NCBI GenBank assembly: GCA_003139855.1
Contig: PLGY01000025.1
Location: forward strand, 9,289 to 73,288
DNA: 64,000 nt
DNA from: Methanobacteriota archaeon
GTDB lineage: Archaea > Halobacteriota > Bog-38 > Methanoflorentales > Methanoflorentaceae
Direction: 5' to 3'
In this document: positions 3,829-61,837 of the stretch, in pieces
How positions within the stretch are numbered: position 1 is the stretch's first letter
Layout: the number at the start of each line of letters is the position of its first letter
The notes under the pieces: model-generated
The model's input: the letters and a program-made list of their open reading frames with translations, nothing else
Database searches by the model: none
Told to the model about the DNA's origin: nothing
Made by a program: the position numbers and the translations under genes

Positions 3829-4767
3829 CTATATCCCAAATGATTCCGCGAGCACCGCTTCGTTCAATCGGCCAAACTTGAGCGTGTTACTTGATTGCGC
3901 ATCCGTGATCGTGACTTGGGCAGGTGCGAACATGAACTTGTCTATCTTATAAAAGTCATAGTTTGCGTCTTTGAAGGTTTGGTAAAACGGCTTGCCATAG
4001 GACGAAGACGTTTCCGAGGGCAGTTTTTCGAATAGCTTGTCGTACTTATTGACCGTCATGAAGACATTTCCATAGTAGATTATGCCATCGTTCGTCATAC
4101 CCATCGCTCGAAGTGAGTCTTTGGAGACGGGCGCGATCGGGCACGAACCGGCTGCGCTCATTATTTGTAATGTGTCATACCCGAGTTCAGCGGCTTTGTA
4201 AACGGCGACTTCAACTACTCTACCGGCCACCTGAACGGTACCGACAATTGATGACGTCGGCGCGTTAAGAAGTGTCAATTTTGAAGGCTCGAGGTTGCAT
4301 TGCTCGGCGATCTCGTCTGCAACCTTCTCATCGGGCAAATGGTCGCATTCAAGTGCGATTACCCCAAAATCATAATCATCTTCGTAGTCTATCAGTTCGT
4401 ACGTCTTCTTCGGCTGGCACGACAAAGCTCGCGCCGGTCCTGAACCCATTGCGCTGTAGTTATCGCCCCTTATTGACCAGCCCGCTTTCTGAGATCCAAG
4501 CGTGGCAAGAGCGGGATGGTCTGTAAAAACGTGAATAAACACCAAGGGCGTATCTTTCAACGTCTGCACGGTGAGACTGACAGACCCGAGCCCACCGAGG
4601 CATATTTCGGTAAACATCTCGCCAGCTTCGTAGCCGCCCTCAACATTGACGCCGCAGTCAATAACCGTGGAACCGTTGTCAAGCTCAAGCGCCTCGATCT
4701 TCAGTTCTTCCGTATAGTCTAACATTTCTTCAACGATTCCCATAGAGATTTCATTAACGCTAAGCAC
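3829..4767 (-). CDS. mch: Methenyltetrahydromethanopterin cyclohydrolase
   Basis: 312 aa. The N-terminus SVNEISMGIVEEMLDYTEELKIEALELDNGSTVIDCGVNVEGGYEAGEMFTEICLGGLG and the overall length match Mch. Confidence 0.85.
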   Translation of the reverse strand: MLSVNEISMGIVEEMLDYTEELKIEALELDNGSTVIDCGVNVEGGYEAGEMFTEICLGGLGSVSLTVQTLKDTPLVFIHVFTDHPALATLGSQKAGWSIRGDNYSAMGSGPARALSCQPKKTYELIDYEDDYDFGVIALECDHLPDEKVADEIAEQCNLEPSKLTLLNAPTSSIVGTVQVAGRVVEVAVYKAAELGYDTLQIMSAAGSCPIAPVSKDSLRAMGMTNDGIIYYGNVFMTVNKYDKLFEKLPSETSSSYGKPFYQTFKDANYDFYKIDKFMFAPAQVTITDAQSSNTLKFGRLNEAVLAESFGI

Positions 4768-6940: not shown

Positions 6941-7300
6941 ATGGACCGACTAAACAAGATCTTTGAATTGCAGGCGAGCTTTGACGAATCCGTTCAAAAT
7001 CGAGCCCCTTTTAACAAGTGGAGCAAAGAAGACCAGGTCGTCGCCTTGCTCGGGCATTTGATACAAGAGTCTTACGAGACGCGCAACACGCTAGGCGTCG
7101 TCATCACCGGTGAGAGGAAGTGGTGGAAAAAACACACGCTGTCTGCGGAAAAGTGGGGCAGCGTTCACGAAGAACTAATTGATTGCTTGCACTTCCTCGT
7201 GTCTGCGATGATCAGCGCAGGTCTGACGCCACAAACGGTCATCGAAGCGTATGAAAAAAAGAACCTCGTTAACAGAAAGAGGCAAGCTGAGGGCTACTAG
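6941..7300 (+). CDS. Dimeric dUTPase-like / MazG-like all-alpha NTP pyrophosphohydrolase
   Basis: ELQASFDE...KWWKKH...EELIDCLHFLVS is the WKWWK plus ELxDxLHFxxS pattern of the dUTPase_2 family. The ATG at 6941 gives a family-typical N-terminus MDRLNKIFELQ. Confidence 0.6.
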   Translation: MDRLNKIFELQASFDESVQNRAPFNKWSKEDQVVALLGHLIQESYETRNTLGVVITGERKWWKKHTLSAEKWGSVHEELIDCLHFLVSAMISAGLTPQTVIEAYEKKNLVNRKRQAEGY

Positions 7301-8487
7301 ATCTTAATCTTTCCATACCAACCGCCCCTGCCCACAAACTCGAAGTCGATAGCGTCTTTTCTAAACCGTTCAAGCACGTCCGCGAGTTCTGGGTGCTGTT
7401 GCCGCACATCACCTAGAGGCGCATCGATTAGAATGTTTATTTCGTTATGAAATTCCCGTATCAGTTCGCCGTAACTCTTCTTGACGTTCATAGCCTTGGA
7501 CCGCTTCATAGCCTTGGACCGCTTCATAGCCTTCAGTATCTCTAAGAGTGGCACAGTGTGTCTATAAGGTGGTCTTCGTGCTGAAGGAACTTCGCCACTC
7601 TTGAGCGCAAGGAGTCGTATTCGATCTTTGACACCTATTTTGAGTGGCCCGCCGCACTCGGGACAGGTTTTTAGCACGTTTCCATCAACGGTGATATCTT
7701 CTAGGTCGTAAGCTTTTTTGCAGCGATGACATCCTGTCAGATGGTACTTGCCCTCTCGTGGATCGAGACCTACGTTGAGGACCACTCCCCGACCGTTGAT
7801 GCCTTGAAATGCTCGACCTATCTCTCTAAAACTTGGGCGTCGCAAGCAGAATCGCGTAAACTCTCTGCCTAACTTGTCAGGCGCCGCGGAATGTGCGTCA
7901 CTGAAAGACACGAAGGTGCATGAATCCAACTCTGCTAACTTGCTGGCCATTTCGGTGTCGGCACTAAGTCCGAGCTCTAGAAAAGTGACGAGATCAGCAT
8001 TCTCTCCATAACACTCACGGATGCTGTCGTATGCGGCATACATTGATGTCCAAGGGGTGAACGCGTGTGACGGCCCCGCGAGTGCATCAACGTCACGAAC
8101 TAAACTGGTAAGTTTTTCAGGCGATATTCTAAGCTGAGGTCTGCCGCCAGTTAATTGGGAATACCCGTTGTTCAACACCACTTCGCGGAGTTCGTGCGCG
8201 GAAGAGAAACTCGGAAACAATATCACATGGTGAACGCGCCCCTTGACCGTTGTTTCAATTTCAGTTTGAATAACAAACGCAATTCCATCAATCTCGTAAC
8301 AGTCTCCACGCTTTTCTAAGCTCGATTCTAGCTCTTCTAGCCATGCGCTGTGAAGACAATCGCCAGTTCCGAGCACTTGAATGCCTTTCAAATGAGCAGT
8401 TTCACACATTCGCGGCAGATCCATCTTAGGGCTCGTCCCGATGCTGAAACGTGAGTGCACGTGCAGATCTACGTCAAAGTGCTTCAT
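7297..8487 (-). CDS. endoQ: Endonuclease Q-type PHP phosphoesterase with Zn ribbon
   Basis: The PHP N-terminus is DVDLHVHSRFS...GTGDCLHSAW. An internal CxxC...CxxC ribbon (GCHRCKK...CPECGG) is present, and the size is about 400 aa. This is the architecture of COG1379/EndoQ. I place the start at MKHFDVDLH (ATG 8487); the upstream track extension translates an AT-rich promoter. Confidence 0.7.
   Translation of the reverse strand: MKHFDVDLHVHSRFSIGTSPKMDLPRMCETAHLKGIQVLGTGDCLHSAWLEELESSLEKRGDCYEIDGIAFVIQTEIETTVKGRVHHVILFPSFSSAHELREVVLNNGYSQLTGGRPQLRISPEKLTSLVRDVDALAGPSHAFTPWTSMYAAYDSIRECYGENADLVTFLELGLSADTEMASKLAELDSCTFVSFSDAHSAAPDKLGREFTRFCLRRPSFREIGRAFQGINGRGVVLNVGLDPREGKYHLTGCHRCKKAYDLEDITVDGNVLKTCPECGGPLKIGVKDRIRLLALKSGEVPSARRPPYRHTVPLLEILKAMKRSKAMKRSKAMNVKKSYGELIREFHNEINILIDAPLGDVRQQHPELADVLERFRKDAIDFEFVGRGGWYGKIKI
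7489..7533. repeat. 18-bp in-frame tandem repeat, about 2.5 copies, inside endoQ
   Basis: catagccttggaccgctt occurs at 7489-7506 and 7507-7524, plus a partial copy catagcctt at 7525-7533. It encodes KAMKRS-KAMKRS-KAM. Confidence 0.95.
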
Positions 8488-8508
8488 CTCTGGGTATTTC
8501 GTAAAACA

Positions 8509-8520
8509 GATATAAATAGC
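8509..8520 (-). promoter_or_regulatory. TATA-like box for endoQ (probably leaderless mRNA)
   Basis: The minus strand reads gctatttatatc, centred about 27 nt upstream of the ATG at 8487. There is no SD-like motif in between. Confidence 0.4.
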
Positions 8521-8625
8521 TAAATAGCTCAATATCGTTATCGTGAAGACGAACATCCAAGTAGTTTTTAAGTCAAGAAAAAGAGTATATGTAGGAAAGC
8601 TAGACGCCTGAAGCGATTAAGCTCT

Positions 8626-9835: not shown

Positions 9836-10420
9836 TTATGTGTTGCCATTATTTAAAAATCTGGCTGCAGCGTATGCAACGATAATGAAGACCGGTGTAA
9901 GCAGGAAAGTGAAAATGGTGATCTGCGTGATATCGCCTGGCGGTATGGGTGGGTGAGTGCCCAAAAAATAATCCGCGTAATCGTTTGCAAAAAACCATAT
10001 GAGCGCGACGGCGACGAACCTCGGCCTCAGCTGTCGAATTAACATCACCGGCAGAATGAACTCGGCAGCCATCGCGACGTGCAAAAGAACCAACAGTGAG
10101 TAAAAACTACTGTCGATTGAAAAATAGAACCCAGCGAACGCTAAAATGACGAATACGGTCCACGTGCCGTATTTTGCCAATCCTATTGCGGTGATGAAAT
10201 TGACAAGATCGGAACTGCGCCTCTTACTCACGTAAACGGCGAGGATTGCCGCCGCGAGCATAGTGTACAGAGGGCAGTCTGGAATGAATATCCAATAAAC
10301 CGGGCTCGAAGAAACCAGCTGATCCCAGTAGTAGTAGAAGCCGATTAACGTTCCCGCGACGTTGATAATTATGATCGCAACTAATAGCGGCGTGTTTTCC
10401 AAGATACCGCGGAGTTTCAC
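9836..10420 (-). CDS. DUF1405-like integral membrane protein
   Basis: 194 aa with about 6 hydrophobic helices. It has a 4-nt overlap with the upstream acetyltransferase gene. Confidence 0.55.
   Translation of the reverse strand: MKLRGILENTPLLVAIIIINVAGTLIGFYYYWDQLVSSSPVYWIFIPDCPLYTMLAAAILAVYVSKRRSSDLVNFITAIGLAKYGTWTVFVILAFAGFYFSIDSSFYSLLVLLHVAMAAEFILPVMLIRQLRPRFVAVALIWFFANDYADYFLGTHPPIPPGDITQITIFTFLLTPVFIIVAYAAARFLNNGNT
9849..9860 (-). promoter_or_regulatory. TATA box for tRNA-Leu(UAG), embedded in the 3' end of the upstream CDS
   Basis: The minus strand reads TTTTTAAATAA about 25-30 nt upstream of tRNA position 1 (9826). Confidence 0.4.
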
Positions 10421-10995
10421 GTCGTGTATTCACTCCTAATCTCTCGAGCGGGCACACCGCCGACCAGAGCGTCGCTGGTGATGTCTCGGTTAACAAGAGA
10501 GCAAGCAGAAACCGTAGCTCCGCTTCCGATGACTACGCCTGCTAGGACAGTCGAGTTTGCTCCTATCAGAACATTTTTGCCGATTTCGATCGGGCCTTTT
10601 TTCCATTTGCCTATCAGGAATTCGTGACAAAGCAGGGTAGACCCGTATCCGATGATGGAGTTGTCGCCAATTTCTATAAGTTCAGGAAAAAAGATGTCAA
10701 AAGTGACTTCCAGACCGACAGAAACGTTCTTGCCGATTTTGATCCCAATTGAACGATATAGCGCGTTTTTTGTTTTCAGCGAAGGCATCGAGCCGCATAC
10801 GCGCACAACGACGTAGTTTAGGGCCACTCGCAGCGGGTTTTTGACTTTGGACCAGTCCCACATTGAGTTACGTTCGTGAGCCGCATACTCTGTTAATCGA
10901 CGCACGTAGTATTCAACGCCTATCTCTCGATTTATAGTTTTACCAAAACATTTAATTTCAATGCCGAGAGGATTCTGAGTGTAATTTTGGTTCAT
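10417..10995 (-). CDS. Hexapeptide-repeat (LbH) acyl/acetyltransferase
   Basis: 192 aa. Left-handed beta-helix repeats are visible (IGDNSIIGYGSTLL...IGKNVLIGANSTVLAGVVIGSGATV). Confidence 0.75.
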   Translation of the reverse strand: MNQNYTQNPLGIEIKCFGKTINREIGVEYYVRRLTEYAAHERNSMWDWSKVKNPLRVALNYVVVRVCGSMPSLKTKNALYRSIGIKIGKNVSVGLEVTFDIFFPELIEIGDNSIIGYGSTLLCHEFLIGKWKKGPIEIGKNVLIGANSTVLAGVVIGSGATVSACSLVNRDITSDALVGGVPAREIRSEYTT

Positions 10996-11031
10996 TTAAC
11001 TAGTAAGTCAATTGGAAAACGGAGGCCTGTC

Positions 11032-12345
11032 ATGTTTGGATCTTCCGGAATTCGCGGAGTGGCCAACAAGGAGCTGACCTCAGAATTGGCGCTCAGTGTT
11101 GGGCTAGCCGTCGGATCTCGATGCAAATCTGCCGTTATAGGCAGAGATCCTCGGATCGCAAGCGAGATGGTTGAATATGCGCTTATCTCAGGGCTCACCG
11201 CCTGCGGGTGTGACGTCACTCGAATCGGCCTCGTCTCGACGCCGACTCTTTCTTACGCAGCCCGAAACTACGAATGTGGGGTTATGGTTACCGCCTCACA
11301 TAACCCTGCTGAATATGTTGGCATCAAATTGTGGAACGCAGATGGCACTTCATTTAATAGCGAGCAGCAGGAAGACATCGAGTCATTGATTACGGAAGAA
11401 GAATCGCACCCTGCGTACAGGGGTAACCGGGCCGGCTGGGATGCTATTGGCAACATTGCGTCTTATGGCAATGCCATCGATGACCATAAAAAGAACATCC
11501 TTAGTCATTTCACCGACGTAAGCTGTCGCGCGGTTGTCGATTGCGGCTCAGGCGCAGGGGGGACGATCACACCATATGTGCTTAGAGAGATGGGGTGCGA
11601 CATCATCACGCTGAATGCGCAGCCCGATGGATTTTTCCCCGCAAGAAATCCAGAGCCAATAGAAAGCAACTTAAACCTCCTCATTGAAGCTGTGCGAAGC
11701 TTCCACGCCGATATCGGTATAGCCCACGACGGTGACGCTGATCGTATGATGGCGGTGGACCGAAGTGGCAGGTATATTGCCGGCGATGAAATGCTCGCAT
11801 TGTTCGGCGTGAACGAGGCAAAAAAGATTGCAGTTTATCCCGTTGACGTTTCGCACATGGTCGATGACGTTCTCACCTGCGCAATTCATCGAACACGCGT
11901 AGGTGACGTGTACGTCGCGGAAGAGGTCAAGCGTGCAGGAGCGGACTTCGGTGGCGAAAGTAGCGGCAGCTGGATTTTTCCCCGGATTTCATATACTCCG
12001 GACGGCATCTATGCGGCGGCACTGATCGTGTCGATCGCTAATCAGCAATCGATCTCCGACGTGATTGCACGGTTTCCTAAGTATCACATTTTGCGCGGGT
12101 CGGTCGCCTACAACGGTGGAAGCGATCCAATGGCTGCGATTACTGAAGAATTGCGTTCTCTCGAATATGTTGAGATAATGACTATTGATGGCGTAAGGCT
12201 TGATTTTGAAGACGGTTGGATACTAGTGAGAAGATCAGGAACAGAACCGAAGATAAGGATTACTGCGGAGGCAAGAGACTCAGCGATGGCAAAACGGCTT
12301 TATGAAAAAGCGTCAGCAATAGTGCAGAGGCACATGCCATGTTAG
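11032..12345 (+). CDS. glmM: Phosphoglucosamine mutase / phosphohexomutase
   Basis: The N-terminus is MFGSSGIRG and the active-site loop is TASHNPAEYVGIKL. The metal loop DGDADR is present. GGAGG lies 7 nt upstream of the ATG at 11032. Confidence 0.85.
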   Translation: MFGSSGIRGVANKELTSELALSVGLAVGSRCKSAVIGRDPRIASEMVEYALISGLTACGCDVTRIGLVSTPTLSYAARNYECGVMVTASHNPAEYVGIKLWNADGTSFNSEQQEDIESLITEEESHPAYRGNRAGWDAIGNIASYGNAIDDHKKNILSHFTDVSCRAVVDCGSGAGGTITPYVLREMGCDIITLNAQPDGFFPARNPEPIESNLNLLIEAVRSFHADIGIAHDGDADRMMAVDRSGRYIAGDEMLALFGVNEAKKIAVYPVDVSHMVDDVLTCAIHRTRVGDVYVAEEVKRAGADFGGESSGSWIFPRISYTPDGIYAAALIVSIANQQSISDVIARFPKYHILRGSVAYNGGSDPMAAITEELRSLEYVEIMTIDGVRLDFEDGWILVRRSGTEPKIRITAEARDSAMAKRLYEKASAIVQRHMPC

Positions 12346-16137: not shown

Positions 16138-18453
16138 TTACAGCAGCTGTTGTGAATTGATGCTAACTGCGTCGATCGGAGATGTGTATCTCGCATCAAG
16201 AGTTCCGTTGGATGGGGGGTCCATCCATAGACTTACATACAGTGTGCTTGTTGACCCCAGAGTGGGCAGAATTTTTAACGGGCTAGAGCTGCCGCTTGTT
16301 GTAAAATCGATCGGCACTGCCTTAGTCTCCCCGACATTTAACGTCACTGGCTTGTACTGGTCTTGCCAAGCGATGTGCAAGCTCATCGGATCGCTGGCGT
16401 AATTCGTTACATAAACAACTCCTGAGTCGCCGTTCACTTCGACGTTGCTGATCAACGCGTATTGTGTAGGCGTTTGGGCGAGCTGGCTTTGGTTAATTTG
16501 GTAAATCACTACACCGTCATTCTGGAATACCTCTGTCATCACTGTGGGATCTGGAACGAAGTTCGAGAATGGAAATCCCCAGACGCTGCTCGAGTAATTT
16601 GCTTTGATCGGATCATAAACGAAGTAGTCTATGCCCAATTTTTTTGCTATGAGTAACTTGCTGGCGGAATCTGTGGAGCCGTTCATGAAATTGGAGAGGT
16701 CTGTGAGCTGTGATAACTGGTGGGTGACAACGTAGGAGTTTTCTGAGTCGGTTGATATTGCAGCTCGGGCACTGGTGAACGTGCTAATGTATTGCAAGAA
16801 AGTTGGATCTGACAATATGGTGTCATTGGATGTTGTGTGTTGATTGAGCCATTGCAGTGCGCTTATTTCGTCACCGGTGAGTTTTGGTTCCTGTGCGTTT
16901 ACGGCAAGGGCGCTGGCCGCGGCAATGTGAAATACCGGCGATAACACAGAGATAACCACAAAAGCGATGATAAGCATCGAGCGCATTGCCCGATTGTCTC
17001 GCCTCCGTCGCAAGCCTTGAACGCGCGGCTGCGGTTCATACGCGATCCGAAAAACAAGGAGTGCAGCGAGTATTGACAGCGGGAGAACGAGATAGAGTAT
17101 CGATTGCACCCCGCCTGCATTTTTCAAAGTGCCCGGTATGACGCGTTGAATAAGATAAGGCAAGTGCGGCGCCGCTACTCCTATAACACCGATTAGCGCA
17201 GGTACCAATGCCACGAGGAGCCAGCTTGAAACAAGCATGTTTCGCAGGTTTGTCTCAGCTCGGTCCCATAGGGCTGTTTTGTAAACCAGAATACTCAGAA
17301 TTGGGATGAGGCCAAGACTTGAAACCATGAAAGCTAGCGAGAACGCCGTCTGAGCCGAAAACACAAGGGAAACCGCAATTACTCCAGCCATCGCGATTAA
17401 AACCAAAATTATGATCAAATTAAGGCCATTTTTTGTCGTGTGGCCAACTACGGCAAACAGTCTGTCACGGCGTTTGTACGGTGACCGTAGATCGGTGCTC
17501 CCGCTAAAAAGCGCGCCTACTGCTGCGAGCCCCAACATGCCTGCCGACAAAGTCAAGATCTCCGGAATGCTCCATGGGAGAGTTTGGTACTGGCTATACA
17601 TGTACAGCCACCAGGGGGCGCTAATTATGACTGGCAGCACGACCATTGCGCTTATCTGCTTCAAATGCATTCGAGTGCCAAGATTAATCAGCACATAGAG
17701 TATGATGAAGACGGTGAAAATGTAATAAAACGTCGTGGTAGAAAGCCTGTGCGTAAAAATAAGCGTTGTTACGGTAAGAGCGCCTAGAAATGTATATTTT
17801 GATGTCAGGATAGACTTACCTACATCGTTCTTAATTGCAGCGTAGAGGTAGTATGTCGCAAGCATCATCAGTATCAGCCCGAAGCTTGACGCAACGATGT
17901 ATTGCGGCCCCAAAATTGCTGGGTTTGGGCTAAACGTCGCCGAAAAAAACGATGCCAAGGCGGCTATTCGCGTGTCGTCTGTGATTTTCTTTACTACGAC
18001 AAAAGTGGTGAGAACGAAGGCTACCAATATGAACGCCGAAAACCCCTGCAGCAGAACGAGCAGTTCGGAATTCATGCTAATATTCACTCCACCGAGTATA
18101 GCGACTGCGCCAAATATGATGGGGAGGCCAGGCGGTTCAATGTTATACCAGACGTCACCAGGGGCGGCGTTTGGATCATTTGCGCTTATCACGTTGGTTT
18201 GTTGGATATTTTTTGCTAAGGCGATGTTCGTCGCGGTGTCGTGATCAATCAAACCGGTGCCGCCGCTCCAGTATCCAGCGTAGCCCACGGTGATAAGCAG
18301 CAACGCGAGGGCCGTGAGCAAGATGCCCACCGACACTTTCTTGCCCAGCTCTCTCGAACGCGTTCGCTCACCCTTGTGACTGTGCTGCGTCGGTGGCGGC
18401 TGAGGTGATCCTAGTCTAGAATACCCTTGATTCTGCTCGTATCGCTCTCTCAT
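16138..18453 (-). CDS. Large polytopic membrane protein with C-terminal extracytoplasmic domain (GT-C-fold-like; function unknown)
   Basis: 771 aa with more than 12 predicted helices, followed by a soluble tail of about 250 aa that is rich in N-x-S/T sequons. I found no WWD(Y/W)G STT3/AglB motif by eye. Confidence 0.5.
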   Translation of the reverse strand: MRERYEQNQGYSRLGSPQPPPTQHSHKGERTRSRELGKKVSVGILLTALALLLITVGYAGYWSGGTGLIDHDTATNIALAKNIQQTNVISANDPNAAPGDVWYNIEPPGLPIIFGAVAILGGVNISMNSELLVLLQGFSAFILVAFVLTTFVVVKKITDDTRIAALASFFSATFSPNPAILGPQYIVASSFGLILMMLATYYLYAAIKNDVGKSILTSKYTFLGALTVTTLIFTHRLSTTTFYYIFTVFIILYVLINLGTRMHLKQISAMVVLPVIISAPWWLYMYSQYQTLPWSIPEILTLSAGMLGLAAVGALFSGSTDLRSPYKRRDRLFAVVGHTTKNGLNLIIILVLIAMAGVIAVSLVFSAQTAFSLAFMVSSLGLIPILSILVYKTALWDRAETNLRNMLVSSWLLVALVPALIGVIGVAAPHLPYLIQRVIPGTLKNAGGVQSILYLVLPLSILAALLVFRIAYEPQPRVQGLRRRRDNRAMRSMLIIAFVVISVLSPVFHIAAASALAVNAQEPKLTGDEISALQWLNQHTTSNDTILSDPTFLQYISTFTSARAAISTDSENSYVVTHQLSQLTDLSNFMNGSTDSASKLLIAKKLGIDYFVYDPIKANYSSSVWGFPFSNFVPDPTVMTEVFQNDGVVIYQINQSQLAQTPTQYALISNVEVNGDSGVVYVTNYASDPMSLHIAWQDQYKPVTLNVGETKAVPIDFTTSGSSSPLKILPTLGSTSTLYVSLWMDPPSNGTLDARYTSPIDAVSINSQQLL

Positions 18454-24632: not shown

Positions 24633-25256
24633 TCATAAGGTCAGCTTTGCCAGATCGAACGCTTCAGCTTTACTATGATTATGAATCGCTAGCATTCCGG
24701 CCTGAAAAGCGCGATACTGTGCGAGACCAGCTATCGCTTCTGTTCGCACGTAGTACTTATCGTTCTGCGTTTCGTGGAGCTTTAAAGCCTCGAGCTTGAT
24801 GTTGAAGAAACGCGTAATGTTGACAAAAACTCGCGGAGTAAACTCGAGTGACACGCTCGGAGACTCATAGAGAAAAATGTCATTCACGTGCCTGTACAGT
24901 GTCATAGTCGCAAGGGCGGTATTTCGATGATCTTGGTGATTGTCGTGTGGACTGTGCGTATATATTCTATCGGGCTGTAATGCATTTACCTTTGCCTGAA
25001 TAAGCTCGATTGTCTGAAAGTCAGTTGGAATCATGCGATCTTTGAGATTCTCAATAGTGATACTGTCCGCGCCAAGGATCTGTGCAGCTTTCTTACACTC
25101 ACTGACTCTTTTGTCACTTGGCCCCCCTGCTTCGCCTTTGGAAAGTACAAGAAGGTGTACGTCGTCGCCTTCGTGTTTGTGATGGGCTAGCGTTGCGTAG
25201 CAACCTAGCTCACAATCATCTGGATGAGCTCCGATCGCTAGAATTACTTTACTCAA
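24633..25256 (-). CDS. PIG-L / LmbE family N-acetylglucosaminyl deacetylase
   Basis: It has the AHPDDCELG and HDNHQDH metal-binding motifs. A TTG start at 25256 gives the family-typical N-terminus MSKVILAIGAHPDD. That start overlaps the stop of the upstream gene in TTGAGTAA. The track ORF extends to 25313. Confidence 0.8.
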   Translation of the reverse strand: MSKVILAIGAHPDDCELGCYATLAHHKHEGDDVHLLVLSKGEAGGPSDKRVSECKKAAQILGADSITIENLKDRMIPTDFQTIELIQAKVNALQPDRIYTHSPHDNHQDHRNTALATMTLYRHVNDIFLYESPSVSLEFTPRVFVNITRFFNIKLEALKLHETQNDKYYVRTEAIAGLAQYRAFQAGMLAIHNHSKAEAFDLAKLTL

Positions 25257-26862
25257 ATAAACCACCAGTGCATAATTGTTTAATAGTGTTGAACAATGCG
25301 TCCATCGAAGCATCGGTGCGCAAAGGTACGTCTGCGTTAAAACTTATATTTCCTTCAAGCGCATGCAACCATTGGGCACAGGTCGATCGTATCCCTATGT
25401 TAGTTGTATAATCGATGACAGAGGGAATCACGTTGAGCGTTTTCGACGTATTGCCCACGATCGAGCGATCTCTCGCGATCTGATTTCGTTCAAATCGTGT
25501 TTTCAACTCATTTTGCATACTTACAATCGTAGCTATTCTCTCTTTAAAGCCATCAAGTTTCCTATCTGCGACTGCACTTTTCAAGTTGTCAAGCGCGCAG
25601 ATGACGCCGTCGACGTCCGCGAGCATATCGTCCAACTCGCCCTGGACGATCTCCACGTCGCACTTCTCATCCTTCGCCAGCTTGTATTGAGATCGTACCC
25701 TCAGTAGTTCGAGAATTGCGTCCAGCTGTCCAACGCCTGCGTAGGTATCTTTCGGTCTCCACATCGAGACGACCGGGAATCGCATCCCAAACTCTCCAGC
25801 GATCTTCTCAGCTCTGCTCAGATATTCGGCGCCTCCGTGGCCGCCGACGTAGAACGAAAGGCCTATGCCGCTAAAGGCGATGAGCATCGCCTCCGCTCGC
25901 AGCGACACGTTGGGTAACATCTGTCCCAGGGCGGAGCGTAGATCCCCCGGAAACTTTACAGTTGTGGTGCACGAGCGACACTTCGCCACGAGCATATGAT
26001 CGGGTACGTGCGTCATCTCCACGTCAGCTTTTCCGCCGCACGGGCAATGATACCAAACAGGCATGGGTGGCTTCGTAGCTAGGTTCTTCTGCGACTCGGC
26101 CATCAATTTAGCGTACTGGTCGTAGTTTTCCAACAGAAAAGCGATCTCTTCAGTAAACACCTGTTGGCATTGGGAAAACCGCGCGAATGCGGTTGTATAC
26201 CCACACTCTTCAATGAGGTATGCGAAAAAGAATGCGTTAAAATCAGCCGCGTTCGTGCTTCTCTCATACGCCCTATCGATAACATCAGACACGACGCGCG
26301 TGTCGAGGTCGACCTCCGGAACCGGCAGCCTCAAACGTTTCGCGTATTTCACAACCGAATCGGACGACTCGCTCGCCCAGCGTTCGATGTCGCTTTTTAG
26401 CCTTACGAGTTCGTCGCGGTCTGGCTTCGGAACAACGCGCATAAGCTTGTTGTAGTACGTCGGAGCAACCGGCAAGTGGAGGGTCAGCGTGCCGTTTCTG
26501 TTTCTGACGCTCGGCAGCTGCGCTTCTCGGAACCACCGCTCATCAGCGAAGTCCTGGTCGGCAAAACAAAAGAGCTCAACTACAGGACAGCCAAGTCTCT
26601 CTCGCAACCGCTCGGCCACCGCGTGGACGAGCACCACCTTGCGCACGACCCCACTGTAGGGCAAGAAGTTAGGCTGATGGGCAGACATCAAAACAATTCC
26701 TTCATAATCTGCTTGAAGCGGGATTCGAGAATCGTTATGAAACGCGCTGACGTGTTCAGCAAACGCTTTGCGCTTGCTTCGCATCGCGTGGTCGGGGTAA
26801 ATAGCGTTGCTTGCAACAACTCGCGTGAGTTCCTGCAGATTCTTGCATTGATCTCCTTTCAT
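25249..26862 (-). CDS. BshC-like (bacillithiol cysteine-ligase family-like) protein with inserted Cys4 zinc ribbon
   Basis: 537 aa, the same size class as BshC. SAHQPNFLPYSGVVRKV...CPVVELFCFADQDFADE resembles the BshC GQQxGLxxGPLYxxxK...PVxPxFWxAxEDHDxDE pattern. GGHGGAEYLSRAEKIAGEFGMRFPVV resembles AGPGExxYW...G.KMPxV. The C-terminus looks like a coiled coil. There is an extra CPCGG-x21-CRSC segment. This assignment is from memory and was not searched. Confidence 0.5.
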   Translation of the reverse strand: MKGDQCKNLQELTRVVASNAIYPDHAMRSKRKAFAEHVSAFHNDSRIPLQADYEGIVLMSAHQPNFLPYSGVVRKVVLVHAVAERLRERLGCPVVELFCFADQDFADERWFREAQLPSVRNRNGTLTLHLPVAPTYYNKLMRVVPKPDRDELVRLKSDIERWASESSDSVVKYAKRLRLPVPEVDLDTRVVSDVIDRAYERSTNAADFNAFFFAYLIEECGYTTAFARFSQCQQVFTEEIAFLLENYDQYAKLMAESQKNLATKPPMPVWYHCPCGGKADVEMTHVPDHMLVAKCRSCTTTVKFPGDLRSALGQMLPNVSLRAEAMLIAFSGIGLSFYVGGHGGAEYLSRAEKIAGEFGMRFPVVSMWRPKDTYAGVGQLDAILELLRVRSQYKLAKDEKCDVEIVQGELDDMLADVDGVICALDNLKSAVADRKLDGFKERIATIVSMQNELKTRFERNQIARDRSIVGNTSKTLNVIPSVIDYTTNIGIRSTCAQWLHALEGNISFNADVPLRTDASMDALFNTIKQLCTGGLFE

Positions 26863-40764: not shown

Positions 40765-42105
40765 TCAAGATCTCACCGCAATGTTCTGGCCATTTCTTAG
40801 AAGATGAATATTGTCCCTTAAGCTGTAACCTGCTTCTTCTGCAAGTTCTACGTAGGAGCTTGTCATGGTTAGATCTCCGTGCGTCGGAAAAATATGGTCT
40901 GGCTTGAGCATCTTAATCAGCTCCCAGTGGTCTTCGCGGGCTGCGTGTCCCGACACGTGAACATCGGTATAAAGCCGTGCCCCTTGCATTTTGAGCTTGG
41001 TTTCTACTGAATATCGATTAGCCGCGTTTATTGGGGTTGGTATCACCTCGGCAGAAAATACTATTTTGTCTCCGGGCGCAACTTTGTAAGGGGTCAGCTC
41101 GTTTGCTACCCGCGTGAGCATCGCTTCCGGTTCTCCTTGATGCCCCGTTATAATAGGAAGATATTTTTCTTTTCCTTCTTGTGCCACTCTCCTTAGTACC
41201 TTTTCTACAGATCTTCTATTCCCGTAGACTCCAATGTCATTCGGAAGCTCGACATACCCCATCCTTTCTGCGGTTCCTAAGTATCGTTCCATAGAGCGAC
41301 CGAGGACCAGCGGGCGCCGGTCCATCTCGCGAGCTGCTTCGAAGATCGTCTTTACGCGGGCTATATGTGACGAAAACGTAGTTACGAGCACCCCATTGCC
41401 CTCTTCTTCAGTGCCGAGAAGAACGTCACGCACCAAGTCTTTCGCTATCTGTTCTGACGGGGTCTTTCCCGCCTCCTTTACGCGAGTACTTTCGACGATC
41501 AACGCGAGCACTCCGTCTTTTCCCAAGCTCTTTAGGCGGTTGAAGTCGGGGGGTTTGCCAATAACAGGCGTCCGGTCAAGCTTAAAATCGTTCGCATAGA
41601 CTAGGGCACCGGCCGGCGTATGCAGAACGGCGAATATTGGATCGGGTATACTGTGCGTTGCTCGCACAAATTCAACCGCTATATCGGGAGTTATTTGATA
41701 AACCTGTCCTGCTTCGAGCGTGTAAAGGGGGTTCTCGACGCCGAACTTCTTTTCAACGCGGATCTGTTGTGCGATCAGCTCCGCCGTAAACGGCGTAGAT
41801 ATTATCGGGGCTTCGTACCTGTGCGCAAGCTTGGGGACGGCGCCTATATGATCGAGATGCCCGTGCGTGCAGACTATCGCCTTCACTGATCCTCTTGCTT
41901 CACTCAGCATCGCGTCATTTGGTATCGCGCCCATCTTGATAAGGTCTATAGAATGCATCTTCTCGATTTCTGCATCCTCGTGAATTGCAATTCGATCGAG
42001 TCTAAGGCCCATATCTATAATCACTATATCTTCGTTCACTCGGATCGCAGTCATGTTGCGTCCGACTTCTTCGTAGCCGCCAATTGCGTTAACTTCTATC
42101 TCCAA
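40765..42105 (-). CDS. rnj: Archaeal RNase J (metallo-beta-lactamase / beta-CASP)
   Basis: 446 aa with CTHGHLDHIG (HxHxDH) and the beta-CASP region ending in HVSGHA. Confidence 0.8.
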   Translation of the reverse strand: MEIEVNAIGGYEEVGRNMTAIRVNEDIVIIDMGLRLDRIAIHEDAEIEKMHSIDLIKMGAIPNDAMLSEARGSVKAIVCTHGHLDHIGAVPKLAHRYEAPIISTPFTAELIAQQIRVEKKFGVENPLYTLEAGQVYQITPDIAVEFVRATHSIPDPIFAVLHTPAGALVYANDFKLDRTPVIGKPPDFNRLKSLGKDGVLALIVESTRVKEAGKTPSEQIAKDLVRDVLLGTEEEGNGVLVTTFSSHIARVKTIFEAAREMDRRPLVLGRSMERYLGTAERMGYVELPNDIGVYGNRRSVEKVLRRVAQEGKEKYLPIITGHQGEPEAMLTRVANELTPYKVAPGDKIVFSAEVIPTPINAANRYSVETKLKMQGARLYTDVHVSGHAAREDHWELIKMLKPDHIFPTHGDLTMTSSYVELAEEAGYSLRDNIHLLRNGQNIAVRS

Positions 42106-45680: not shown

Positions 45681-46277
45681 TTAAATCTCTATTTCGAAAT
45701 CTTTAACTCCGTAGCCCGTCTGTTGGCCGCGAAGCTTGGTGATCTCCTTTGCGAGGAGCCAATAGATGAGCGCTAACGCTTTCCGTCCTTTGTTGTTGGT
45801 GGGGATGACGATGTCAATGTGTGTCGTCATATTATTTGTATCGCACATGGCAATTACTGGAACGCCGACATCTACAGCTTCCTTAACGGCCTGTGAATCT
45901 CCAATAGGATCCGTGACGACAACGACATCTGGTTCAACGAAGTCGCGGTACTCCGGATTTGTCAATGTGCCCGGTATAAAGCGACCCACAACTGATTTCG
46001 CTCCCGTTACTTTAGCAAACATTGTTGCGGGAAATTGACCGTATTGCCGTGCTGAAACCACAAGTATGCGGGCCGGGTCGAATTTACTGAGAAATTTGGC
46101 TGCAATTCTTATGCGCTCGTCTGTAGCTTTGACGTCCAGCACGTAAAGACCGTCTGGTCGAACGCGATAGACAAAGCGCTTCATATCTTCCGTTTTTTGC
46201 TGCGTGCCTATGTGCACACCTGCAGCTAGGTATTCGTCAACAGGGATGAGTGATTCGTATTCCGTGGTCTCTTCCAT
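45681..46277 (-). CDS. rps2: 30S ribosomal protein uS2
   Basis: [13 protein letters not shown]... is a typical uS2 sequence. The ATG at 46277 is preceded by GGAGGTG. The track extension to 46331 overlaps the upstream gene. Confidence 0.9.
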
Positions 46278-46290
46278 TGATCCACCTCCT

Positions 46291-47379
46291 CTAAATCGGT
46301 TTTTTCGCCATCCTGTAGCTCGATCCGTCAAATAGTTCTTCTTCTATTCGTATAAGTTCATTGATTTTTGCAGTGCTCTGTCTACCCTTGATGCTTAGTT
46401 TGACAAAGGGAGCGGACAAAGCAACAGCCAGCTGCGACGGTGATGCGTCGCAGGTCGCAGAATTGTCGGTAAGCAGAGCGCAGCTGCGGCCATTGGTTCT
46501 CTCCCGGGAGTACGTTTCGAAAACGCTCGAAACCGTACCTGTGGGCGCAATTAATGCAAGATTGGCCTCCTTATCGCTCTTCGGGGAATGCGCATCCGCA
46601 ATTCTCGTGTCGAGATCCGCCTGTGACGCTATCAGACACGTCGCTTCCAGCTCATCGGTTAGCTCTCGCTGAAACTCAGACTCTGTTCGGTCGAAGGGAT
46701 CTTCGATGTAATACAGATCGTACTGACGGGCGAGATCTAGCAGATATCGCAGTCGGCTGGTTCCCGTCGTGGAGGCATGGTCCGCAAAACTAAGCTTGCC
46801 CTGCGCGTGCTTCGAAGCTTTGAAATCCACTCCTAGCCTGATCTCGAAGCCAAACCTGCTACTTACATCGCTCGTGATTGCAGTCAACCGATTCAAAATG
46901 TCGGCGTGAGCAGAGTCTCCAGGGATATCCAGATTATTGAACTCTCGATGGATGCTTGCTAGCGAAGCAATTGCGCTGGCAAATGAGCCCGCTCCTTTTG
47001 GAATACCAAAATAATCAGCGCCGGCGCTAAAGATTTTTAGCAGAGGGTAGGGCATAGCATTCGCAAAGAAGCCGCCGAGGTAGCGATACAACGGCATTCC
47101 CAGAGAGGCCGCTGCTGCACTTGCAATTGCAACTGAGAAAGCCATACGTATATTGGGCAATGAAAAGATACTCTCTAGCACTTCGTCGATTTCTGCCTGC
47201 TGACTCACCTCCCTGCCGATGAGTGTAGCCACTTGTTCTCGCGCCTTTCTTATTGCCTCGCCTGGCGCGGGAAAAGAGCACCGGCCATAGCTGTTTGTGG
47301 TCACTATCTCTACTTCGACCGCGTCCGTCGCGTTTATGTCGAATGCCTTGCTTACAGATACCGCCTCTATCGAGTTCAT
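46291..47379 (-). CDS. Enolase-like protein, divergent and short, with most catalytic motifs replaced
   Basis: It sits at the conserved rpoK-eno-rps2 position. It retains [14 protein letters not shown] and [11 protein letters not shown], but the SGASTG, GDEGG, GDD, LLLKxNQIGT and SHRSGETED motifs are substituted. It is 362 aa, versus about 420-430 aa for typical enolases. Confidence 0.7.
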
Positions 47380-47567
47380 CGTGGGGTTCCTCGACGTTTT
47401 ATCGTTATCGGAATGACCCCTTTCTTGAGTTCTTCTAGTGCCATGTCTATAGGATCTGCGGTGCTTGATTCTATCAATGTGGGGGCGCCCATAGAAATCT
47501 GCAGAGCTCGCGCCCCGACGATTCTGGCCCTTTCATAACGAGTGAGTTTTTCAGTAACTTCTTTCAA
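47376..47567 (-). CDS. rpoK: DNA-directed RNA polymerase subunit K (Rpo6)
   Basis: 63 aa with [22 protein letters not shown]. Its stop overlaps the eno-like start (ATGA). Confidence 0.85.
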
Positions 47568-51565: not shown

Positions 51566-51652
51566 CGCTGGGGGTGGGATTTGAACCCACGAGTCCCGGT
51601 GGGACACTGGTTTAGCAAACCAGCGCCGTAGACCAAGCTTGGCTACCCCAAC
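51566..51652 (-). tRNA. tRNA-Ser(GCU)
   Basis: Hand fold. The acceptor is GTTGGGG/CCCCAGC. The anticodon stem is CTGGT/ACCAG with loop TTGCTAA. The long variable arm is TGTCCCACCGGGACTC and the T arm is GTGGG-TTCAAAT-CCCAC. Confidence 0.9.
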
Positions 51653-51657
51653 AGCGG

Positions 51658-51968
51658 GTGTGGGCGCACAGAAAGGTCGTCATTCTGCAGCCTGTCAGAG
51701 CTCCCAACTCATTCTCTATCCCGCGACCCTCCGAGCGTCACGCGTCCGCGATAGGTTTGCTCCCTTCCGGGCCTGAACCGGTGCTCACGGTGAGCGCGTG
51801 CCGCTGGTTCTCCAATCAGCAACACACGGCCGTTGACCCCGCAGGACGGAATTTCATTGTCTGAATTGTAAGATGGTCAAACTGCCAAAATGCCTTCCTT
51901 CTGTTTCGCTCCCCACTTGTCGACGTTTTTGGGTTACAGAGGACGCCGAGCCATCCGAGCTAGCCCAG
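51658..51968 (-). ncRNA. Signal recognition particle (7S) RNA; ends approximate
   Basis: The minus strand contains the helix-8 signature GGUUCAGGCCCGGAAGGGAGCAAACC (complement of 51755-51780). An archaeal SRP 5' region is also present: UGGGCUAGCUCGG..GGCGUCCUCUGUAACCC. The length of about 310 nt fits archaeal SRP RNA. The 5' UGGGC can pair with the 3' GCCCA (51661-51665). Confidence 0.75.
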
Positions 51969-51990
51969 TTATCATATAGCTATCAGTATC

Positions 51991-61128: not shown

Positions 61129-61221
61129 GCTCCGGTAGTGTAGTCCGGCCAATCATGTTGGCCTTTCGAACTTTAGCAGTGAAGCAAGCCAACGACTCGG
61201 GTTCAAATCCCGACCGGAGCA
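61129..61221 (+). tRNA. tRNA-Glu(UUC) with an 18-nt intron at 37/38
   Basis: Hand fold. The acceptor is GCTCCGG/CCGGAGC and the D loop is AGTCCGGCCAA. The anticodon stem is TTGGC/GCCAA with loop CTTTCG|intron 61169-61186|A. The T arm is TCGGG-TTCAAAT-CCCGA. The intron folds into a canonical bulge-helix-bulge. Confidence 0.9.
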
Positions 61222-61736: not shown

Positions 61737-61837
61737 GCGGAGGTAGCCAAGCCTGGCCAAAGGCGCAGGACTTAAGAACCGTTGTTTGGGATATCCTGTT
61801 GCGAAGGCATTCGTGGGTTCGAATCCCTCCCTCCGCA
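61737..61837 (+). tRNA. tRNA-Leu(UAA) with a 16-nt intron at 37/38
   Basis: Hand fold. The acceptor is GCGGAGG/CCTCCGC. The anticodon stem is CAGGA/TCCTG with loop CTTAAG|intron 61777-61792|A. The variable arm is TTGCGAAGGCATTC. The T arm is GTGGG-TTCGAAT-CCCTC, with one U-U mismatch. Confidence 0.85.

Follow-up and report, generated by a model that had tools for sequence, protein, structure and literature searches.

The position between the RNA polymerase gene rpoK and the ribosomal protein gene rps2 is where archaea usually carry enolase, and it raises the question of what becomes of an enolase gene that keeps this place when its catalytic residues appear to be gone. We addressed this question in a stretch of 64,000 nucleotides (nt) from a Methanobacteriota archaeon (contig PLGY01000025.1, positions 9,289 to 73,288 of the forward strand), referred to below as the window, in which an open reading frame (ORF) of 362 amino acids (aa) occupies this position on the minus strand (46291..47379). 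This pseudo-enolase ORF, here called eno*, encodes an enolase-fold protein that lacks the enolase catalytic machinery, as judged from its homology and lost motifs, from an AlphaFold2 (AF2) model with Foldseek searches and from the ratio of non-synonymous to synonymous substitution rates (dN/dS). We think it probable, with fair rather than full confidence, that eno* is the ancestral in-place enolase, turned into a non-enzyme in one peat and soil clade and retained there as a probably dimeric binding or scaffold protein.

Profile and structure comparisons place eno* among the enolases. It matches the Pfam profile Enolase_C above the cut-off (E value 2.9e-10, 40.4 bits against 21.5) and Enolase_N under it (29.7 bits against 35), and it reaches 93 bits with TIGR01060 (eno), where the cut-off is 300; none of the 37 full-length members of its family approaches that cut-off, the best having an E value of 9e-47. 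The closest sequence match in the Protein Data Bank (PDB) is the M. jannaschii enolase 2pa6 (1e-18). The AF2 model, computed with the family alignment as input, has a mean pLDDT of 81 and a pTM of 0.81, with low confidence only in the loops 189-204 and 256-268, and every one of the top 50 Foldseek matches to this model in the PDB is a true enolase (E about 1e-22, TMq 0.77-0.84). The two-domain enolase fold, an N-terminal alpha+beta domain with an atypical TIM barrel, is retained in the predicted structure, and the fold-marker segments that the initial annotation of the gene had pointed out are present. For membership in the MR/MLE (mandelate racemase/muconate lactonizing enzyme), OSBS (o-succinylbenzoate synthase) or dipeptide epimerase groups, NCBIfam gave marginal matches only, with E values of 0.002-0.08 for the window protein and of 5e-05 to 6e-06 for the best family member. 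At 362 aa, eno* falls 42 aa short of the Methanocella enolase (404 aa) and about 70 aa short of the enolases of bacteria and eukaryotes.

Residues were numbered on yeast ENO1 in a MAFFT L-INS-i alignment of 118 sequences that included eno*, 36 full-length relatives, 79 canonical enolases and the yeast protein. The ten numbered residues of ENO1 (S39, H159, E168, E211, D246, E295, D320, K345, H373 and K396) had the amino acid types that their numbers call for. On the residue losses MAFFT and the HMMER pairwise alignments of eno* to PDB enolases agree. The features described in the next paragraph all lie on the minus strand.

Three loops have been cut out of the protein. Loop L1, the SGASTG loop with the second-Mg ligand S39, has left a scar at residues 37-41 (PAPGE; 47257..47271), where 24 alignment columns are missing relative to yeast and 13 relative to Methanocella; the S39 column is a gap in 37/37 family members and Ser in 76/79 canonical sequences. 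The scar of loop L2 lies at residues 118-122 (SAGAD; 47014..47028), where H159 to Q167 are deleted and E168 has become D122, and that of loop L3 at residues 151-157 (IPGDSAH; 46909..46929), where about 16 aa with GDEGG and the general acid E211 are deleted, the E211 column again being a gap in all 37 members. In the segment from strand 6 to strand 7 (residues 248-283; 46531..46638) the metal ligand D320 is replaced by Q253 and the catalytic base K345 by A278, with residues 256-268 predicted to be disordered. The SHRSGETED motif is replaced at residues 302-311 ([10 protein letters not shown]; 46447..46476), so that H373-R374-S375 read Thr-Asp-Asn; H373 corresponds to T304, and this position is Thr in 36/37 members and Ser in the remaining one. 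The barrel residues that survive (46399..46827) are D185 (D246 in yeast), E226/D227 (E295/D296) and K327 (K396), which are kept in eno* and not family-wide.

Thus, from the substrate-binding set H373, R374, S375 and K396 only K396 remains in eno*; among the Mg(I) ligands D246 and E295 are present and D320 is Gln, and the loop carrying the Mg(II) ligand S39 is deleted. The alignments indicate that the catalytic apparatus for enolase chemistry has been lost. The five motif replacements listed in the initial annotation were correct in substance in both kinds of alignment, and its term "catalytically degenerate" is borne out, as eno* lacks both the general base and the general acid, H373, the Ser loop for the second metal and one metal ligand.

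The enolase fold, the enolase position and the label "enolase" given to family members by IMG/JGI might still speak for a functional enolase with shifted or alternative catalytic residues. The NCBI PGAP annotation conflicts with this label and reads "hypothetical protein", and the TIGR01060 score of eno* falls far short of the family cut-off. Moreover, the two independent alignment methods agree on the losses and the candidate replacement positions are unconserved in the family, so that catalytic residues which are present but shifted, the alternative that the initial annotation had named, were not found. A working enolase of this sort is hardly credible.

The degenerate state is not an error of the window, since it is seen in all 37 full-length members of the family, which measure 360-366 aa and contain no stops down to 43% identity. 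A similarity search over 5.8 billion proteins returned 41 clusters at 43-99% identity, followed by a drop to canonical enolases at 33% or less. An exhaustive HMMER search with the family profile over 1.84 billion representatives gave 645 and 502 bits for two full-length representatives of 50% clusters, with all further matches at 195 bits or less; intermediates between the family and canonical enolases were absent from this search, as the gap from 502 to 195 bits shows. In a GTDB scan with one genome per species, the family was present in 19 species (L008-L026). All of these are archaea without cultured members, sampled in peat, fen and soil and deposited as Euryarchaeota, Halobacteriota or Methanomicrobia archaeon, and their genomes include four closed chromosomes of 2.1-2.7 Mb (OY970393.1, OY969693.1, OY970258.1 and OY969924.1). 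The gene order from S13 to the glutamyl-tRNA synthetase (GluRS) gene is unchanged even in the 43%-identical member, and by ribosomal-protein identity the closest sampled relatives of the window are Methanocella-like (uS2 75%). This closeness and the habitat (Stordalen, SPRUCE) would fit Methanoflorentaceae ("Bog-38").

Several observations on the search results stand apart from this. Some members have 384 aa, about 22 aa above the usual 362, among them L015 (4477-5556, with a C-terminal extension) and P0246, P0252 and P0254. Wrong bin labels ("Candidatus Bathyarchaeia archaeon", "Candidatus Acidoferrum sp."; P0041/L006 among the entries) occur on several contigs with a clearly archaeal operon. 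Among the 144 best 50%-cluster representatives matched by the family profile, 63 had at least two mismatches at nine catalytic positions in a quick, rough MAFFT alignment; many of these are full length and some are fragments or possible misalignments (e.g. P0323, P0336, P0343, P0347, P0354, P0372, P0412 and P0445). This suggests that divergent or degenerate enolase-like proteins may be common in metagenomic protein space.

The pattern of losses across the family bears on how the present state arose. The three loop deletions and the replacement of H373 by Thr or Ser are common to all members. No catalytic or metal-ligand set is conserved across the 37 full-length proteins: the P0040/41 subclade has Gly for D246, P0033-39 carry Gln/Val or Gln/Ile in place of E295/D296, most members have another residue at D320, and K345 has become Ala, Thr, Val, Asn or Pro across the family. 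Only the most basal subclade (P0297, L023) has kept the ancestral D320 (in CGDAIF) and K345 (in AIKP). Shared loop losses together with a piecemeal loss of residues are as expected if the founder of the family had already lost catalysis and the leftovers have been drifting since, and the piecemeal loss of the barrel residues argues against a conserved new chemistry in the barrel.

Such a chemistry is what one would expect of a neofunctionalised enzyme, in which the leftover barrel (D185, E226/D227 and K327 together with the new T304, N306, T309 and C310) would serve another reaction or bind a small phosphorylated ligand. The equivalents of D246, E295 and K396 are indeed kept in 34/37, 29/37 and 35/37 members, respectively, T304 is nearly invariant, and T309 and C310 are invariant. 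However, the subclade replacements just described leave no family-wide metal-ligand set, the three substrate-enclosing loops are gone, the region of strands 6-7 is variable and predicted to be disordered, and the top fold matches are enolases proper and not superfamily members of the MR/MLE type. We consider neofunctionalisation quite unlikely.

Conserved in the family are, besides the N-terminal sheet, the helix region with PLYRYLGG ([17 protein letters not shown]), the [10 protein letters not shown] helix at the C-terminus and a family-specific C-terminal tail that ends in Pro-Ile. In total, 52 positions are invariant and about 59 more are nearly so. Residues E22 and R344, invariant or nearly so, correspond to yeast E20 and R414, a pair which we take to form a salt bridge at the subunit interface.

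We compared dN/dS between eno* and its relatives by the Nei-Gojobori method, a comparison that the initial annotation had also proposed. The values are 0.28-0.35 at dS 0.1-0.25 and 0.15-0.19 at dS above 1, against 0.03-0.23 for the neighbouring genes. eno* is therefore under purifying but relaxed selection, with the weakest constraint in the cluster. This rank is the reverse of that seen for working enolases: between lineages, canonical in-situ enolases are more conserved than Memo, mevalonate kinase (MvK) and isopentenyl phosphate kinase (IPK), for example with 61% against 43-46% identity, whereas within the family eno* stands at 43%, Memo, MvK and IPK at 54-56% and uS2 at 81%.

These rates also bear on a decaying relic, in which selection would act on translation through an ORF that couples rpoK to rps2 and not on the protein. 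The ATGA overlap with rpoK, the stop codon 13 nt before rps2, the position of eno* as the fastest-evolving gene in the cluster and a frameshift in one relative (L026) are in line with this idea. Against it, the reading frame is intact at 360-366 aa in 37 members and dN/dS lies well below 1, so that neither a broken frame nor a dN/dS near 1, the marks of a pseudogene, is found outside L026. Nor would a spacer keep more than a hundred invariant or nearly invariant positions and an enolase fold that is predicted with confidence, and the L026 frameshift is a single one in a nanopore-derived metagenome-assembled genome. A mere relic is thus very unlikely. The L026 copy itself (about 10001-11087 of CAVVIU010000001.1) shifts frame near codon 130, after which the reading continues to the usual C-terminal KMMRKPI and stop; this reflects a homopolymer error of nanopore sequencing, or else the gene has become a pseudogene very recently.

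Where the family came from can be read from its neighbours. In six related lineages (P0143, P0173, P0184, P0074, P0183 and P0189) a fully canonical enolase, 398-420 aa long, lies at the same position in the same gene order, with 12/12 checked catalytic or ligand residues intact. Of these lineages two are Methanocella-like, two bear the label Methanocellales archaeon and the other two are neither; in L069 the canonical gene has the same ATGA overlap with rpoK. Methanobacteriales show this arrangement as well, and the statement in the initial annotation that the gene occupies the usual archaeal enolase slot stands. The family profile scores best with the short archaeal type of canonical enolases (210-229 bits), where Halobacteriota in-situ enzymes lead and Methanobrevibacter is close behind. 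That six related lineages have a canonical enzyme in this very place indicates a decay in place, and the most economical reading of these sequences is that the resident gene degenerated after the clade had split from the Methanocella line. A neighbour-joining tree gives the family a long branch, basal to the short archaeal enolases; we discounted this basal placement as long-branch attraction and relied on synteny and on counts of shared derived characters.

Canonical archaeal enolases (EC 4.2.1.11) of Methanocella, Methanomicrobiales, Methanobacteriales and others share with eno* the position, the orientation and the two-domain fold. They differ from it in measuring 395-420 aa, in having 12/12 checked positions intact and in belonging to the most conserved genes of the cluster.

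An in-place degenerate enolase is of a kind already described, and the initial annotation missed this precedent. All Thermococci and Methanococci have two enolases, a fast-evolving one in the Rpo6-S2 context and a slow-evolving one elsewhere, for which subfunctionalisation was proposed, so that the in-place copy would retain no more than an ancillary function linked to its ribosomal neighbours (Makarova, Wolf and Koonin 2015, Life 5:818, PMC4390880). In that study the fast in-situ paralogues form branches 3 and 4 of Fig. 4 within arCOG01170; catalytic residues were not analysed there and the word "catalytic" is absent. Like eno*, these paralogues lie between Rpo6/rpoK and S2 in the ribosomal superoperon, are strongly accelerated relative to ordinary enolases and are proposed to have lost the glycolytic role and kept an ancillary one linked to translation or transcription; the long basal branch of the eno* family also matches the published description of branches 3 and 4. 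The differences are that eno* belongs to peat archaea related to Methanocella, the nearest sampled relatives of which carry a normal in-situ enolase, that the decay is documented here residue by residue, and that the second, slow copy of the published model was not found in the searches described below.

For a direct comparison with Thermococcales, we took the T. kodakarensis uS2 from the PDB alignment, fetched the corresponding loci from JGI metagenomes and extracted the gene upstream of rps2. In all 33 loci (L072-L104) an enolase-like gene of 341 aa lies directly before rps2, and its products belong to NCBIfam NF006223/PRK08350 "hypothetical protein" (636-661 bits, cut-off 624). eno* reaches 52.8 bits with this profile, and its family 53-90 bits (best member E 2.6e-26), far under the cut-off. 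Both proteins derive from an enolase fold, are encoded directly upstream of rps2, have L2 and L3 deleted at nearly the same places and have lost the SGASTG motif, and the Thermococcales protein retains the C-terminal helix as INELIRI. Their residue patterns are opposite: PRK08350 keeps K345, has lost D246, E295, D320 and K396 and has Glu for H373, whereas eno* keeps D246, E295 and K396 and has lost K345.

The two proteins are 24% identical, and each is about 30% identical to canonical enolases. Among derived consensus positions, 3 are shared by both degenerate families, while at 18 the eno* family and at 11 the Thermococcales family agrees with the canonical state. The low identity, the few shared derived positions and the opposite residue patterns show two independent degenerations at the same locus; by these sequence comparisons the eno* family falls outside PRK08350 and arose independently of the Thermococcales case. 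Our literature search found no experimental work on the Thermococcales in-situ paralogue and no paper tying Methanoflorens or peat Methanocellales to enolase or gluconeogenesis. As far as the literature was searched, the lineage, its independent origin and the residue-level path of decay are new.

If eno* no longer makes phosphoenolpyruvate (PEP), the question arises which gene does. A tblastn search of the 64-kb window with four canonical enolases matched only eno* itself, so that there is no second enolase in the window. We then took the Methanocella enolase P0058 as the seed of a protein search, whose matches were listed at about 60% identity or more and nine of whose contexts were examined; its reach excludes copies less than 60% identical to the Methanocella enolase and those of bacterial type. 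The matches P0143, P0173, P0184, P0074, P0183 and P0189 are the in-situ canonical enolases of other lineages named above. The ex-situ copies P0170, P0172, P0174 and P0177 were rejected as the second enolase of this lineage: their contigs have 56-61% GC and tetranucleotide correlations of 0.2-0.4 with the window, against 50% GC for the window and correlations of 0.93-0.97 between it and its nearer relatives L001, L008, L009, L012 and L017. We assign them, because of this mismatch, to a different, high-GC lineage.

These ex-situ copies are of interest in their own right. P0170 (L057 6001-7245), P0174 (L059 6001-7245), P0172 (L067 10001-11245) and P0177 (L068 1183-2427) are enolase paralogues inside phosphonate C-P lyase clusters, with PhnG/H/I/J, a phosphonate-binding ABC transporter, several amidohydrolases and AP_endonuc_2 as neighbours. 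They have 414 aa, 12/12 catalytic or ligand positions intact and 66-77% identity to the Methanocella in-situ enolase. An enolase dedicated to the phosphonate pathway in Methanocella-like archaea, if that is what they are, would be unusual.

It is conceivable that these organisms have no working enolase at all, that the step between 2-phosphoglycerate and PEP is missing and that the upper part of central carbon metabolism (3-phosphoglycerate to sugars) and the lower part (PEP, pyruvate and acetyl-CoA) have separate supplies. Such a gap would be a matter of physiology, and a non-catalytic role of eno* would agree with it. In line with it, the window holds no canonical enolase, all nine proteins examined in context from the P0058 search come from other lineages, and no equally abundant vertical canonical copy is evident among the matches examined, even though the host is abundant (P0004 alone occurs in 209 index blocks). 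On the other hand, the search was blind to copies below 60% identity to Methanocella or of bacterial type, all Thermococci and Methanococci with a degenerate in-place copy have a canonical one elsewhere (PMC4390880), and the window contains many sugar-nucleotide and glycosyltransferase genes, which implies that hexose synthesis is needed. We regard a missing step as unlikely and, by analogy with Thermococci and Methanococci, a second canonical enolase elsewhere in the host genomes as quite probable.

The initial annotation had offered, as its first alternative, that the organism relies on another enolase copy while this one has a moonlighting or structural role. The second half of this proposal is favoured by the dN/dS of 0.15-0.35, by the predicted intact fold and by the published precedent (PMC4390880); the first half found no such backing, as the window holds no other copy and the ex-situ candidates belong to another lineage. 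Its second alternative, glycolysis or gluconeogenesis interrupted at this step, is the missing step that we regard as unlikely, and its interpretation is thus supported in part.

A retained, non-catalytic protein thus accounts for the observations as follows. The founding events would have been the deletion of the active-site-closing loops L1 (S39), L2 (H159) and L3 (E211) and the change of H373 to Thr, after which the remaining catalytic and metal-binding residues would have drifted, differently in each subclade. Selection would act to keep the two-domain fold with its N-terminal sheet, the helix region around PLYRYLGG, the helix at the C-terminus and the pair of E22 and R344. eno* may continue a second, non-glycolytic job of enolase linked to the co-translated Rpo6 and uS2 and possibly to the RNase J encoded a few genes downstream, by analogy with the RNA degradosomes of bacteria, of which enolase is a part; some other gene would then have to supply the step from 2-phosphoglycerate to PEP. 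A non-catalytic role would fit a protein whose fold is kept and under selection, whose gene stays translationally coupled to those of Rpo6 and uS2, and whose counterparts have been retained independently more than once; dimerisation, the binding role, the identity of the partners and the existence of a second enolase are inferred.

We know of no archaeal complex between enolase and an RNase. The RNase J-type ribonuclease of the same gene string is a candidate partner that the gene neighbourhood suggests, and the degradosome precedent together with this gene makes a partner in RNA metabolism attractive. In bacteria, enolase is a non-catalytic partner in RNA degradosomes, as in the RNase E-enolase association of E. 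coli and the RNase Y/J network of B. subtilis (PMC4390880, PMC8576121). The parallel to eno* is a second, structural role in RNA metabolism; the difference is that in bacteria one active enzyme does both jobs, and that the archaeal link is drawn from gene neighbourhood.

Four points weigh against a selected, probably dimeric binding protein. The yeast R8-E417 interface pair is changed on both sides in the family, which makes dimerisation of eno* uncertain. The expected second canonical enolase was not found, either in the window or among those P0058-seeded matches of at least about 60% identity whose contexts were examined, which gave other lineages only. The dN/dS of eno* is the highest of the gene cluster, so that the constraint on the protein is modest. 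Finally, the isoelectric point (5.26 against 5.23 in canonical enolases) and the net charge have no basic shift that would hint at nucleic-acid binding, and we dropped this hint.

A stronger version of the structural role can be formulated, in which eno* would be a dedicated non-catalytic subunit or assembly factor linking RNA polymerase (Rpo6), the 30S subunit (uS2) and RNase J-type decay, and this structural job would be the ancestral reason for the presence of enolase in the superoperon. We hold this to be possible but doubtful. If true, Thermococcales and the eno* clade, together with Methanococcales, for which the case is reported only, would be natural separation-of-function experiments that expose the structural role. 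A more radical addition to it would be peat archaea without any catalytic enolase.

The arrangement of the locus is in keeping with translational coupling. rpoK, which encodes Rpo6 (RNA polymerase subunit K; Pfam RNA_pol_Rpb6 matches the orthologue in L005-L007), lies upstream of eno* at 47376..47567 on the minus strand, and its TGA stop shares three bases with the ATG of eno* to give ATGA; L005-L007 have the same 4-nt overlap, and the overlap reported in the initial annotation is visible in the window sequence. Downstream, rps2 (uS2; 45681..46277, minus strand; PDB uS2 matches at 1e-88) starts with an ATG at 46277, 13 nt from the TAG of eno*, with a GGAGGTG Shine-Dalgarno sequence at 46283-46289; this start was chosen because the orthologues in L001-L007 have 198 aa. 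The whole gene string reads S13-S4-S11-RpoD-L18e-L13-S9-RpoN-RpoK-eno*-S2-Memo-mevalonate kinase-isopentenyl phosphate kinase-IDI2-RNase J-geranylgeranyl diphosphate (GGPP) synthase-GluRS. The RNase J-type beta-CASP ribonuclease (40765..42105, minus strand; Lactamase_B, RNase_J_b_CASP and RMMBL domains) is found at the syntenic position in every relative.

Elsewhere in the window, a methenyl-tetrahydromethanopterin cyclohydrolase gene (3829-4767, minus strand; Pfam MCH, 436 bits) indicates C1 metabolism dependent on tetrahydromethanopterin (H4MPT) and is consistent with a Methanocella-related methanogen. Three large ORFs on the minus strand have no Pfam match at 1e-5 (16138-18453, 771 aa; 25249-26862, 537 aa; 7297-8556, 419 aa). 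The tRNA matches at 51566-51652 (minus), 61129-61221 (plus) and 61737-61837 (plus) span 87-101 nt, above the standard tRNA length, and probably carry introns or long variable arms. An archaeal signal recognition particle (SRP) RNA gene lies at 51658-51970 (minus), 6 nt from one of these tRNAs, both just upstream of the S13 operon.

Why enolase sits among ribosomal-protein and RNA polymerase genes in archaea and many bacteria is the subject of a debate on "gene sharing versus hitchhiking" (PMC2588523). Here one more independent lineage has dropped the chemistry and kept the protein, its position and its translational coupling, which argues for a real second function of enolase, and eno* would, as a natural catalysis-free allele, be a clean reagent for partner searches. 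The stepwise erosion, with loop deletions first and lineage-specific residue losses afterwards, offers a record of how a pseudoenzyme arises. For the organisms themselves, metabolic reconstructions that count eno* as enolase would wrongly complete lower glycolysis and gluconeogenesis in archaea that are abundant in peat and wetlands.

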